Shown: piece after piece, positions 19,294 through 28,473 of the stretch | Layout of the letters: every line of letters starts with the position of its first letter | How positions within the stretch are numbered: the stretch's first letter is position 1 | Origin: Candidatus Saccharimonadales bacterium | Lineage (GTDB): Bacteria; Patescibacteriota; Saccharimonadia; Saccharimonadales; Saccharimonadaceae | Length of the DNA: 31,937 nt | Direction of reading: 5' to 3' | Assembly (NCBI GenBank): GCA_038248455.1 | Contig: JBBRXL010000001.1 | Span: 1 to 31,937 of the forward strand | The notes under the pieces: generated by a model | What the model saw: the letters and a program-made list of their open reading frames with translations, nothing else | Databases searched by the model: none | What the model was told of the DNA's origin: nothing | Program-made: the position numbers and the translations under genes

Positions 19294-20558
19294 GATATTT
19301 TCTCCACCTTGGTAACTTTAGAAAGTTTATTCCTAATATCGAGCATGGCTGTATATGTACAATATATTCGCTTTGGTTTATCTTTGTTGGTTGTTATAAA
19401 TTTCTTTAGAGCTTTTTTGATATTTGGATCAATATTATCTACTTTAACTTCGTCATATTTAAGACGAAGTCCCATATCAAAAGCACGAATGCCCGAAACT
19501 TGAGATACGCCTTTCTCGTGCAGTGACTCAAAACCTACGTCCCAAAGCCATGACATATCTCGACCATCGGCATAGTTGTCGTTGATGGCAATCATAGTAG
19601 CGCAGTTGAGTGGGTCAAATGATTTTAGGCCAAGCCGGAAGCCAGAAGGGTTTTTTACTAAGACTAGTTCTAGGGGTTGACCTTTTATTATAAGTGTCTC
19701 GCCTCGTCCGAAGGCTGGTGAGACATTTGATAAGTCTTCTAGGAGTTTAGCATTGTCTACCTTATCTCCGACAATTGACCGTACAAGAGTAAGGGCTGCG
19801 GCAGCATTAAATACATTGTAGATTCCATTTAGTTTTAGGTGTGTTCTATGAGCTTTGTTCTCTATAACAAACTCAGCTTTATCAACAGAGAAACGGTTAA
19901 GTACGACGTCCGCTTCGACGTTAGCCTTCGTTACGAGTCCTCCTCTCAGCGTGTCATCGGTTGGAAATTGAGCAACGAGTAACTTATCTAGCCCGAAGAA
20001 TTTTACTTTTTGAGTTGTGAGTGATTTTTGTATGTCGGCAATTCGTCTGTCTTCGCGGTTTAATACCACTGTATCTGTCGTACTAATGGCAATTTGGCGA
20101 AGCATGTTTTGGGTTGTATCGATCTCTCCGAAACGATCTAGTTGGTCACGCATCACATTTAAGATTAAGCTGTAGCGTGGTTTGATTGTCTTTACGAAGT
20201 TTACACCGTGGGCTTCATCAAGTTCCAAGACGGCTATGTCGGCCTTTAGTTTGCCGCTCAGGCTAATCTCGCCGAGCAGTGCGGCCGCTACTCCACGGGT
20301 AAAATTACTCCCTGTGCGATTCGTAAATACATTGAGACCCTGACCCTCGAGAAGTTCAACGACCATTTTGGTAGTCGTGGTCTTGCCGTTGGTGCCACTA
20401 ATAACCACTACGCCGCGCGGTAATTGGCTAAGTGTATTTTTGATAAAGTCGGGGTCTATCTTCTCAACAACGAGTCCCGGTAAAGCCGATCCGCCACCGC
20501 GTAGTTTTGCGACAGCTTTGACAGATTTTCCAATAATGGTTACGTACGTTTTTGGCAT
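19290..20558 (-). CDS. murT: Lipid II isoglutaminyl synthase MurT (Mur ligase + DUF1727)
   Basis: SGTNGKTTT, GSNF, LELDEA, RDQLDRFGE, LVKNPSG, NYADGRDMSWLWDV, YTAML. Confidence 0.92.
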   Translation of the reverse strand: MPKTYVTIIGKSVKAVAKLRGGGSALPGLVVEKIDPDFIKNTLSQLPRGVVVISGTNGKTTTTKMVVELLEGQGLNVFTNRTGSNFTRGVAAALLGEISLSGKLKADIAVLELDEAHGVNFVKTIKPRYSLILNVMRDQLDRFGEIDTTQNMLRQIAISTTDTVVLNREDRRIADIQKSLTTQKVKFFGLDKLLVAQFPTDDTLRGGLVTKANVEADVVLNRFSVDKAEFVIENKAHRTHLKLNGIYNVFNAAAALTLVRSIVGDKVDNAKLLEDLSNVSPAFGRGETLIIKGQPLELVLVKNPSGFRLGLKSFDPLNCATMIAINDNYADGRDMSWLWDVGFESLHEKGVSQVSGIRAFDMGLRLKYDEVKVDNIDPNIKKALKKFITTNKDKPKRIYCTYTAMLDIRNKLSKVTKVEKIS

Positions 20559-26022: not shown

Positions 26023-26098
26023 GCCCCGGTAGCTCAGTGGATAGAGCAGAGGACTTCTAAGCCTAAGGTCGTTGGTTCGATCCCAACCCGGGGTACCA
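26023..26098 (+). tRNA. tRNA-Arg(TCT)
   Basis: Acceptor GCCCCGG/CCGGGGT, D-stem GCTC/GAGC, loop CTTCTAA, T-arm GTTGG-TTCGATC-CCAAC, CCA; weak anticodon stem. Confidence 0.9.
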
Positions 26099-26281
26099 TA
26101 TTATCAACTCATCCTTTTTTGGATGAGTTTTTAATATAATGCGGGTTGGCATTGAACCAACGACTTTTTGTATAGCAAAAAAAGTCGTTTGTTCGGTGTA
26201 GCAAATGAAATAAAAGAAAGCACCAGAGGTATTTTCTTTTATGAATGAGTGGAGGATGCTGGCAGATTCCCAACCCGGGGT
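26099..26281 (+). repeat. tRNA-Arg-mirrored element: hairpin, inverted T-arm copy, and a direct copy split at the T-loop
   Basis: Inverted copy 26142-26164 (21/23 to 26068-26090); direct copy 26184-26197 (12/14); exact 14-bp copy 26268-26281 = 26081-26094. Confidence 0.85.
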
Positions 26282-26465
26282 CAAATTGGTTATGTTTTTT
26301 AAATAAACAAGTTCTATATATGAGTAATTTGTAGTAATTAAGTCTACATTTATTATAAGCGTTTAATTGATGTAAATTTGAAATAACTGTGTATAAACCG
26401 GTCAAGCTTTTGACAATTTGTATAAATGTGTTGATAAATTACGCTAAACGTGTTACTATTTAAGT

Positions 26466-26512
26466 ACAGCGCCTTGATTTGGACTCGTTCCCGTCAAGGT
26501 TCTTTGTTTTTT
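26466..26512 (+). ncRNA. Candidate small structured RNA upstream of the NYN gene
   Basis: Promoter TTGATA(26431)-17-TACTAT(26454); stem ccttga/tcaagg (26472-26499) with inner gga/tcc pairing; T-rich tail. Confidence 0.35.
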
Positions 26513-26528
26513 ATGCTATAATTTACGA

Positions 26529-27194
26529 ATGAAAACAGTGGTTTACATTGATGGGCAAAACTTTTTATATAAGGCTTCAGAAGTTTTAATTACTGCCGGT
26601 TTAATTGCTAATAAACAAGATCTTTATAAGTTAGATATACGTGGGATAATTTCGGACATTATATCAACTGATGAAATGGAAATTAAATATTACGGTGCAA
26701 AAGTTAAAGTTATTAATCATCTTGGCGACGAGATTAAAGACAAATCTCATAAATTTTCAGATAACTCTAGACGTTTGAGGAATACTCTTAATCAACAATC
26801 TATCAAATATATAGAATCAGGAAAACTTAAGCTTCGCGATAGTGATGAATGTAAGAATTGTGGACATAAAGACTTACGTTTTCAAGAGAAGGGTGTAGAT
26901 GTTGGTATTGCAGTAGATATGATAGTTGACGCCTCAGCTGGCGATTTAGATCAGGCTGTGCTACTAAGCTCTGATACTGACCTCATTCCTGCGGTCAAGG
27001 TTGTTCGTAGCCTTATATCCAATATTGTATATATGGGATTCGTAGATAAGCTAACCAACGCTATCATCTCTCAGGTAACAAGGACTGAAACAATTCGTGA
27101 TAGTGAAATTATAGATGCATTTAACCGCTTGAATCCACAGGAAGTTCTACCTATAGAAATATCGGAAAACTCATCGGACGACCCTATTATTTAG
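26529..27194 (+). CDS. NYN-domain (LabA/DUF88, PIN-like) ribonuclease
   Basis: VYIDGQN, QEKGVDV, LLSSDTDLIP acidic catalytic motifs, CKNC knuckle; AT-rich. Confidence 0.88.
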   Translation: MKTVVYIDGQNFLYKASEVLITAGLIANKQDLYKLDIRGIISDIISTDEMEIKYYGAKVKVINHLGDEIKDKSHKFSDNSRRLRNTLNQQSIKYIESGKLKLRDSDECKNCGHKDLRFQEKGVDVGIAVDMIVDASAGDLDQAVLLSSDTDLIPAVKVVRSLISNIVYMGFVDKLTNAIISQVTRTETIRDSEIIDAFNRLNPQEVLPIEISENSSDDPII

Positions 27195-27211
27195 TAGGTT
27201 AGTATAGTTCT

Positions 27212-27272
27212 AGTTTTTAATATAGTTCGGGCTGGAATTGAACCAACGACTTTTTGCATAGAAAAAATAGTC
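27212..27272 (+). repeat. Second copy of the tRNA-Arg-derived inverted arm
   Basis: 54/61 identical to 26126-26186 by manual alignment; contains the reverse complement of the tRNA-Arg T-arm (20/23). Confidence 0.85.
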
Positions 27273-27297
27273 AATGCAAGGTGTTATAATGTAACAA

Positions 27298-28473
27298 ATG
27301 GTGTGGCGCTTTATCTTGACTCTTTTTATCTCTATCGTATCCGTTTTTAGTATAAATAATTACGCGATGGCTCAGGACGCGGATAGGCGACTTATTACAG
27401 TTTATGACCGTGGGACTACGCGAGTTTTTATAACAAAAGAAAAAACAATCGGTAAAGCTCTGAGTTCTGAGGGTATCGAACTTGATGCGCGTGATACAGT
27501 AGAGCCTTCGGTCAAAGAAGAACTGGTGGCGCCGGACTACAGCGTCAATATATATCGGGCGCGCCCAGTTATCGTTGTCGATGGCGCTGTTCGAATAAAA
27601 ACAATTTCACCATTTCAAACAGCAAAGCAAATCGCCAAGGACGTTGGTATAGAGGTTTACGACGAAGACATCACAACGCTTCGGCCTTCAGCCGATTTCG
27701 TAAATGATGGTGCTGGCTTGCTACTTAATATCATAAGGGCTACAACATTCACGTTAGATCTTTATGGCAATAAGTCAGAGTTCCGTACGCAAACTGAAAC
27801 TATCGGTGAAATGTTGAAAGAAAAGAACATAACACTCGGTGCTAATGATAGGGTGTCTTTATCCCTAGATACTCAGATTTCAGTAGGTATTGAAGTTCGA
27901 ATCTGGCGCGAGGGCAAGCAAACAGTAGCAGTAAACGAACCCATACCAGTAATTAGTCGGATAGTTTATGACAATGATCGACCAATTGGCTACAGGGCCG
28001 TTCAAACCAAAGGTATACCGGGTATTCGAAGCGTAACTTATCAACTGGAGATAAAAGATAGTATTGAAGTCTCGAGAGTCGAGATAGCTAGTATCGTTAC
28101 ACGCAAACCTACCGAGCAAGTAGAAGTAATCGGACTATTCAACGATGGTTCGGGACTGACAAAATCAAAAGGTGCGCAGTATTTCGTAGACAGTAAGGGC
28201 GTGTCGCATCGTGAAACATACTATGATCTGGATATGAGCAGAGTCATGCAAAGCTGTGGGCAGGGTGGATATTATTCAGTGCGTCCAGATGGTGCCAAGG
28301 TCGACGCCGGGGGCTATGTAATAATTGCCGCTAACTTCGCAATATATCCAAGGTGTTCAATAGTTGAAACAAGCCTCGGGCCAGCCAAAGTATATGACAC
28401 GGGAGGTTTCGTAGCGAGGTTTCCTTATGGCTATGATTTGGCGACCGACTGGTCGATAGCCGACGGTATATAG
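27298..28473 (+). CDS. YabE/RpfB-like cell-wall protein (DUF348 repeats, G5, 3D-like C-terminal domain)
   Basis: Signal/TM; repeated T...TIgk.L.e.gI.L...D.V.PS units; G5-like KGIPGIRSVTY...EQVEVIG; C-terminal IIAAN...VYDTGG. Confidence 0.8.
   Translation: MVWRFILTLFISIVSVFSINNYAMAQDADRRLITVYDRGTTRVFITKEKTIGKALSSEGIELDARDTVEPSVKEELVAPDYSVNIYRARPVIVVDGAVRIKTISPFQTAKQIAKDVGIEVYDEDITTLRPSADFVNDGAGLLLNIIRATTFTLDLYGNKSEFRTQTETIGEMLKEKNITLGANDRVSLSLDTQISVGIEVRIWREGKQTVAVNEPIPVISRIVYDNDRPIGYRAVQTKGIPGIRSVTYQLEIKDSIEVSRVEIASIVTRKPTEQVEVIGLFNDGSGLTKSKGAQYFVDSKGVSHRETYYDLDMSRVMQSCGQGGYYSVRPDGAKVDAGGYVIIAANFAIYPRCSIVETSLGPAKVYDTGGFVARFPYGYDLATDWSIADGI

Follow-up and report, generated by a model that had tools for sequence, protein, structure and literature searches.

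The stretch of DNA analysed here, called the window, comprises 31,937 nucleotides (nt) of a Candidatus Saccharimonadales bacterium (GenBank assembly GCA_038248455.1, contig JBBRXL010000001.1, positions 1 to 31,937). It carries a transfer RNA (tRNA) gene, tRNA-Arg(TCT), followed by a gene for an NYN/LabA-like ribonuclease (RNase) that stands between two 61-nt direct repeats, copy A (26126-26186) and copy B (27212-27272). A sequence-only reading of the window had proposed that these repeats belong to an integron-like cassette system anchored on tRNAs and mobilised in trans. Our comparative analysis points, with moderate confidence, to a different origin, in which the A/B bracket would have arisen incidentally, as three insertions followed one another at the 3' end of tRNA-Arg(TCT), and would not be a pair of cassette recombination sites. 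The NYN gene probably sits in a layered tRNA insertion hotspot rather than in an integron-like cassette. Parts of the earlier proposal find support, namely the hotspot itself, the foreign composition of the NYN gene and a further integrase-less insertion in this genome, at tRNA-Met; the idea that the 61-mers bound a cassette does not. All window features described below lie on the plus strand.

The repeats themselves are as first described. A recount gave 54 of 61 identical positions (89%) at a spacing of 1086 nt, with an inverted T-arm of tRNA-Arg in both copies, and the longest exact run that they share is the 20-nt ATTGAACCAACGACTTTTTG (26151-26170 in A). The tRNA-Arg gene upstream is intact (26023-26098; ARAGORN, and 62 bits against the Rfam tRNA model). 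Comparison of the repeats within the window divides copy A into a terminator tail, a spacer, the inverted T-arm (26142-26167) and the 5' arm and loop of a hairpin at 26154-26194; copy B, delimited by the same comparison and by alignment, holds a terminator tail, a spacer, an inverted T-arm (27228-27263) and a hairpin at 27248-27272. The T-arm segment of A is complementary to tRNA-Arg positions 26065-26090 (88% over 26 nt), and that of B to positions 26055-26090 (81% over 36 nt), running from the anticodon loop into the acceptor stem. A degenerate pattern for the 27-nt core matched A and B only, with an expectation of 0 in 100 shuffles, and a check for further copies of the 61-mer, which the earlier reading had suggested, returned none beyond A and B in the 657-kb assembled genome. 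The likeness of the two copies also continues leftward without gaps and at the same offset of 1086, from 26089-26104 to 27175-27190 (CGG..ACC.TATTAT, a tRNA end with its trailer), so that the related unit measures about 112 nt. Minus-strand candidates at A and B were considered and rejected: ARAGORN and Rfam (E≤1) gave neither a hidden full tRNA nor a known RNA, and the 5' acceptor strands that a minus-strand tRNA would require are missing on reading the sequence.

A further repeat links the tRNA to the DNA behind it. The 14-nt TCCCAACCCGGGGT occurs exactly at two places, first inside tRNA-Arg at 26081-26094, where it forms the 3' part of the T-loop, the 3' strand of the T-stem and the 3' strand of the acceptor stem, and again at 26268-26281, where it is followed by CAAATTGGTTATGTTT. 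This tRNA 3'-end copy had been pointed out before; its proposed role had been that of an attP-like site travelling with the NYN gene. It is best read instead as the displaced original 3' end of tRNA-Arg, left behind when another piece of DNA entered the T-loop.

That piece of DNA is a complete, gene-less tRNA-trailer insertion of 187 base pairs (bp) at 26095-26281, the younger of two copies at the locus, and copy A is its proximal (5') arm. The assignment draws on the architecture of related elements and on an empty site. Its parts run from ACCA-TATTAT through a terminator hairpin (26108-26127), a T-run with a spacer, the inverted T-arm and an AT hairpin to a direct copy of the 5' strand of the T-stem (26184-26196), a conserved core, the motif GCAGAT and, finally, direct repeat 2. 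The last 18 nt of the present tRNA-Arg, from about T-loop position 59 to the CCA, come from this insertion. The core (26197-26259) contains a hairpin (26210-26224 paired with 26228-26242) flanked by GAATGA motifs; in the alifold analysis this hairpin shows compensatory changes at its base and top, and the core had no Rfam match at E≤1.

Comparison across the genus places this unit in a family. When the segment 26104-26300 was searched against 62 genus genomes, the stretch 26191-26260 recurred with 80-87% identity in 39 of the 61 other genomes, with at most five copies in any one of them. At the loci that were fetched, the core sits 60-100 nt behind tRNAs and is always oriented as they are. The family is present behind 13 other tRNAs of nine identities (Arg-TCT, Arg-TCG, Met, Tyr, Glu, Phe, Pro, Lys and Gly), and its order is constant: the tRNA end, a terminator hairpin, an inverted T-arm of the cognate tRNA and an AT-rich hairpin are followed by a direct copy of the cognate T-stem 5' strand that stops in the T-loop, the conserved core, a variable short hairpin that closes with GAT, and the 3' end of the cognate tRNA in direct orientation, taken up again in the T-loop. 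Among 100 distinct tRNA contexts, 13 of 15 direct tRNA 3'-end copies fall 167-202 nt downstream; these contexts were mostly fetched through matches to the trailer element, and the share of carriers among them is accordingly not representative. The window's own genome has the full architecture behind Gly-tcc, Arg-tct and Glu-ctc with near-identical spacing (+52-56, +86-90 and +167-172), and partial versions behind Pro, Leu, Asn and Ser tRNAs. The member behind tRNA-Gly has the part order of the 187-bp unit, breaks the T-loop at the same point, shows a GAT ahead of its displaced 3' end and agrees in length (182-187 bp). Judged by the full part order and a span of 167-202 nt, the segment 26095-26281 belongs to the family, and the B unit has the first four parts only. 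What sets the window apart from the rest of the family is that two members of the tRNA-Arg lineage stand 1086 bp apart and enclose a protein gene, an arrangement seen nowhere else in the roughly 100 tRNA contexts.

Some variants of the family deserve mention in their own right. Behind tRNA-Tyr in one genome (L053, genome G002) and at a locus in another (L066, genome G010), there are tandem partial copies of the distal end of the element together with the tRNA 3' end, which suggests repeated insertion at one tRNA. Cores at L054:300-500, L055 and L063 follow sequences that ARAGORN does not call as tRNA, for example one ending in CTGAGCCATA plus a terminator; other stable RNAs may end there. By eye, the right end of the trailer element holds a T-arm mimic in the window and in L049, but L050, L052 and L058 lack it, and the feature was therefore dropped.

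That the 187 bp entered as an insertion is indicated by the closest NYN homologue (87% identical), on public contig L097. There the NYN gene lies about 100 nt behind the 3' end of a tRNA-Arg(TCT) and the 187-bp unit is missing, and its trailer, ACCAAATTGCTATGTTT, is the counterpart of the window's CAAATTGGTTATGTTT at 26282-26296. A second homologue (L100, 84% identical) has ACCAATTTCTATGT, likewise similar to the window's old trailer. The segment 26282-26324 is therefore taken, from a comparison by eye, as the old tRNA-Arg trailer that predates the insertion. Since L097 has the same trailer without the 187 bp, the copy at 26268-26281 would be the tRNA's original 3' end, displaced when the unit entered the T-loop, and the earlier view of the 14-mer as an attP carried along with the NYN gene is the poorer reading, as the homologue in L097 follows a tRNA 3' end directly.

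Copy B is best read, from its sequence relationships, as the proximal arm of an older, truncated unit of the same trailer family. It can be aligned to the 5' arms of ten further tRNA-Arg(TCT) units and retains the family consensus AAAAATAGTC at positions where A deviates, and a copy that keeps consensus letters lost in A was not copied from A. To its left, at 27175-27190 and in register with the A unit, lies a decayed tRNA 3' end with trailer (CGGACGACCCTATTAT versus CGGGGTACCATATTAT, 12 of 16 positions). Two genomes of other species provide precedents: behind tRNA-Arg in G074 and G014, a complete unit precedes the displaced 3' end, which carries ACCA, and beyond this come another terminator, a further inverted T-arm and a hairpin that is cut short, all without a gene in between. 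The 89% likeness of arms A and B would then follow from their being two members of a tRNA-Arg-specific lineage of one element family.

The same likeness could also have arisen by local duplication of a single trailer arm, through unequal crossing-over or replication slippage, with the NYN gene inserted between the duplicates or captured later and no second insertion involved. The gapless register over 112 nt is what such an event would leave, and A is the closest relative of B among the arms compared (68% versus 43-56% over about 100 nt). Several observations nonetheless make a duplication very doubtful: the terminator parts of the two units are unrelated in sequence, B preserves family-consensus letters that A lacks, and the empty site in L097 shows entry of the 187-bp block between the T-loop and the old 3' end. 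The double copies in G074 and G014 moreover carry different terminators, as separate insertions would give.

The gene between the repeats (26529-27194) encodes 221 amino acids (aa). The earlier statement that an AT-rich NYN gene lies there agrees with its match to Pfam PF01936 (46.3 bits against a cut-off of 24.2) and with a GC content of 33% over 26282-27211, compared with 42.8% for the genome. The protein also matches the PADLOC model HEC-09, which represents a proposed defence candidate (1.4e-18), and across 13 homologues the residues D124, D130, D149, D151, C108 and C111 are invariant and D8 is kept in at least 90%. Its sequence is that of an intact NYN/PIN-like RNase with the acidic core residues retained; no solved structure matched it by sequence at E≤1. 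The C-terminus is variable after about residue 205, and in the window the older insertion's remnant encodes its final residues, DDPII.

The NYN gene is a mobile accessory unit of foreign composition. According to blastn limits and alignment, a block at about 26325-27161, made up of a 200-nt non-coding leader and the coding sequence, is conserved as a whole with 74-79% DNA identity at seven other locations (L097/L098, L099, L100, L101/L102, L103-L105, L106-L108 and genome G023, found with blastn); an additional homologue, in G019, is cut by the end of its contig. The leader keeps a GTAG...CTAC inverted repeat, a TTGACA, a promoter-like TTGATA-N17-TACTAT, a hairpin with a T-run (26472-26512) and an extended -10 box. 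Its segment 26431-26512, which holds the promoter-like sequence, the hairpin (26472-26499) and the T-run, is near-invariant across eight genomes, is better conserved than the NYN coding sequence and lies directly upstream of the gene's own -10, an extended box deduced from the sequence at 26514-26522 (TGCTATAAT, 6 nt before the ATG). In G023 and G019 the inner stem of the hairpin changes in a compensatory manner from GGAC..TCC to GGAT..ATCC. One possibility is that the segment acts as a small RNA or insulator linked to the RNase.

The NYN gene at these other locations bears on the claim that A and B are recombination sites of a tRNA-anchored, integron-like system, in which a recombinase acting in trans would excise a 1086-bp NYN circle that re-enters through the 14-nt core. 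The repeats are real, direct and tRNA-derived, the interval between tRNA-Arg and the G5 gene on the right receives cargo, the NYN gene is compositionally foreign, and no recombinase is linked to it, all of which would suit such a system. Against it, no A- or B-like sequence was found at the seven other NYN locations where the flanks were assembled, only two copies of the 61-mer exist in the genome, and the same arm occurs behind many tRNAs without cargo and as cargo-less double copies. The NYN gene has its own conserved promoter, and the 14-mer is accounted for as the scar of the 187-bp insertion. Taken with the recombinase inventory given below, these points make a cassette system of this kind highly improbable.

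What the locus does share with the cassette proposal is a site at which genes come and go. The earlier reading had asked for the interval between tRNA-Arg and the G5 gene to be compared across relatives, and this interval is a variable hotspot, empty in three relatives and occupied by other cargo in three. It is empty in G021 (168 bp), L109 (about 140 bp) and L111/L112 (109 bp); it holds one unrelated gene of 140 aa in G022, a 2-hydroxyacid dehydrogenase gene in L113, behind which an old GTACCA and terminator now lie displaced, and in G013 a set of five genes (an amidase, two DUF218 proteins, a hydrolase and a membrane protein). Neither an integrase nor a 61-mer was found in the tRNA-Arg to G5 intervals of the relatives, and the orthologous intervals of G013, G021 and G022 contain no repeats except the tRNA itself. 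Two further details of L113 were recorded: an 18-nt copy of the tRNA-Arg 5' end at L113:3155-3172, which is 93 nt upstream of the intact tRNA, and the position of the displaced GTACCA and terminator at L113:4395-4440, with the same ACTGTACCA recurring at the distal end of the cargo in L100.

A second small insertion in the same genome lies at tRNA-Met(CAT) (G000 C4:19997-20562, L115). It is 466 bp long, carries one orphan open reading frame of 90 aa (20188-20460) that was not found in the 61 other genus genomes, and is bounded by a perfect 23-nt direct repeat, TTCAAGCCTACCTGGTGCTACCA, which extends from the T-loop to the CCA; it has no integrase and no inverted T-arm. With the 187-bp unit, it establishes that small integrase-less insertions at tRNA 3' ends are real in this genome, and in both cases the boundaries of the insertions are tRNA 3'-end direct repeats and not 61-mers.

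The tRNA-Met insertion also supports a variant in which the NYN gene is itself the cargo of a small integrase-less tRNA-3'-end element, bounded by 26268-26281 and the decayed 27175-27188, with the 61-mers as bystanders; this would refine the second of the three insertions. The one-gene unit at tRNA-Met, with its perfect 23-nt repeat, no integrase and a reading frame not found in the 61 other genus genomes, is of the same kind. The L113 dehydrogenase gene, with its displaced GTACCA and terminator behind tRNA-Arg, and the ACTGTACCA distal to the cargo in L100 (a 204-aa gene plus NYN) also speak for it, as does the placement of the NYN gene shortly behind a tRNA in the window, L097, L100 and L104, which makes four of the eight examined locations. 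The distal repeat in the window, however, matches at just 12 of 16 positions, and the search for flanking tRNA 3'-end repeats around NYN in L100 and L103/L104, and in L113, gave short GTACCA-type matches only, which leaves L103/L104 without such repeats and L100 with a short one. Four NYN locations have no tRNA nearby in the sequence examined, and ordinary gain or loss of a gene beside a tRNA would look alike after decay. We regard this refinement as possible, though rather unlikely.

A tRNA-like gene at L104:512-584 was also noted, in another metagenome, 140 nt upstream of the NYN unit. ARAGORN assigns it a two-base anticodon and an extended acceptor stem of about 13 bp, and it has its own -10 box.

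The inventory of recombinases adds to the case against cassette recombination. The earlier remark that the window contains none applies to the whole of its contig (C1), on which no tyrosine or serine recombinase was found; the only matches in the assembled genome, which is 77% complete, are on C14 and C44. The single PF00589 protein (C14) scores as XerC/XerD (243 bits) and reaches 136 bits with the integron integrase model, against a cut-off of 265. On C44 (665-4600), two genes stand behind a tRNA-Gln(TTG), one for a large serine recombinase of 496 aa and one replication-relaxation-like, which form a small integrated element; a sequence at C44:3243-3261 that resembles the 14-mer region proved to be a palindromic terminator not derived from a tRNA. 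No rve domain, Y1 transposase, reverse transcriptase or TnpB was found in the assembled genome. Compared with integron cassettes (IntI, attI and attC), the locus is alike in having a single gene between related, partly palindromic repeats and no recombinase inside. It differs in that no IntI was found in the 77%-complete genome, there is no array and only two repeat copies exist; cassettes are mostly promoterless and driven by Pc, whereas NYN has conserved promoters of its own at all locations. The repeats here are, furthermore, tRNA-derived parts of a separate element, and NYN homologues elsewhere lack them.

The reading that we favour, three insertions stacked at one tRNA, can be laid out as a sequence of steps. 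In the first, an early gene-less trailer insertion would have entered behind tRNA-Arg; its proximal part, 27175-27286 with copy B, would survive abutting the G5 promoter, as a decayed tRNA 3' end, TATTAT, spacer, inverted T-arm and hairpin. In the second, an AT-rich segment would have arrived at the tRNA 3' end and shifted the older trailer downstream. With it would have come a new tRNA 3' end, a trailer unlike the older one, and the NYN unit complete with promoter and leader. The third step is shown by comparison: a second complete 187-bp copy of the family entered the T-loop, provided a terminator as well as a new version of the tRNA's final 18 nt, and displaced the previous 3' end to 26268-26281. 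As for the fate of the bracket, the 1086 bp could be lost through homologous recombination of A with B, but nothing suggests a dedicated or used pathway. No excision or deletion joint was present in the assembled contigs of the single source DNA run, which also goes against the cassette proposal, although this is weak evidence and says nothing about rare forms.

Several points weigh against this history. Behind copy B there is no direct T-stem copy, no core and no further displaced 3' end, and with these parts missing, likeness and the two precedents are all that mark it as a truncated element. The 3'-end remnant at 27175-27190 matches at only 12 of 16 positions and lies inside the NYN reading frame, and the central 23 nt of the roughly 112-nt unit, which form the terminator hairpin in A, are unrelated between A and B. 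In the L097 contig (L097:1-1430) the GC content drops from 65% to about 40% at one precise place, the anticodon loop of tRNA-Arg; the contig is probably a chimeric assembly joined at a conserved tRNA, so that its tRNA is incomplete. The contigs examined come from the one source run, and rare excision products could exist outside them. Finally, no exact or near-identical G5 or NYN protein is on record, the best homologues being 76% (G5) and 87% (NYN) identical, and with databases that hold no strain-level relatives we infer the order of events.

Genomic islands and islets use tyrosine integrases to enter the 3' portion of tRNA genes; they accrete in tandem at one tRNA and fall into T-loop, anticodon-loop and 3'-end crossover classes. 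The window resembles them in several ways: insertion is in the T-loop or 3' end, the incoming DNA restores the tRNA end and the old end remains as a direct repeat (14 nt here, 23 nt at tRNA-Met). Successive layers have the newest beside the tRNA, and empty sites exist (L097 without the 187 bp; G021, L109 and L111/L112 gene-free). The 3' repeat expected of such islands is exact for the 187-bp and tRNA-Met units, and the NYN layer has just the decayed 12/16 remnant. Unlike islands, no layer here has an integrase in or near it, and the units are tiny (187 bp and gene-less, or about 0.5-0.9 kb with one gene). The inverted and direct copies of the cognate T-arm around a shared core in the gene-less unit are, in addition, not explained by an ordinary attP. 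A search for literature on tRNA-linked repeats or miniature integrative elements in Patescibacteria found nothing relevant.

A more speculative extension is that this lineage may have a minimal insertion system, mobilised in trans, which targets the tRNA T-loop or 3' end and re-supplies the tRNA end. It would be a tRNA-anchored cassette economy of ultra-small genomes, driven by an enzyme of the host (the lone Xer-like recombinase, for instance) or by another, moving gene-less modules of 167-202 nt as well as single-gene cargo (NYN, the 90-aa orphan at tRNA-Met, the L113 dehydrogenase). We offer this as a tentative idea that is unlikely on present evidence. Saccharibacteria have tiny genomes with few recognisable mobile-element genes, yet their accessory genes turn over, and the locus records a possible route: tRNA 3' ends gather small insertions in layers without a linked integrase, and one such layer bears a putative defence or toxin RNase. 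If a single mechanism acting in trans underlies the insertions, it would give episymbiotic bacteria a compact means of gene flow, and it could also be adapted for site-specific insertion in a group that is difficult to engineer. The locus also advises caution, as tRNA-derived repeats that flank a gene need not be that gene's recombination sites.

With regard to the putative function of the RNase, the likeness to HEC-09 and NYN-LabA RNases comprises the NYN domain, the HEC-09 model match, the conserved aspartates and the neighbours of its homologues elsewhere, which are SMODS/AGS-C with SLATT and SMEK with DUF2326. This clade differs in a CxxC insert and in the strongly conserved promoter-hairpin leader, which do not appear in the preprint on HEC-09 (bioRxiv 10.1101/2024.01.29.577857). 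In that preprint HEC-09 protected against no phage tested, and a defence role of NYN is thus unproven.

On the right, the locus is closed by a conserved neighbour, a G5/DUF348 (YabE/RpfB-like) gene at 27298-28473, recognised through Pfam and with orthologues that are 66-76% identical. Its promoter, TGTTATAAT, lies at 27282-27290, and conservation with the relatives resumes at 27278-27281. The extended -10 boxes (TGnTATAAT) of NYN (26514-26531) and G5 (27282-27300) end 6-7 nt before the ATG, with no Shine-Dalgarno sequence, which suggests that both messenger RNAs are leaderless in this genome.

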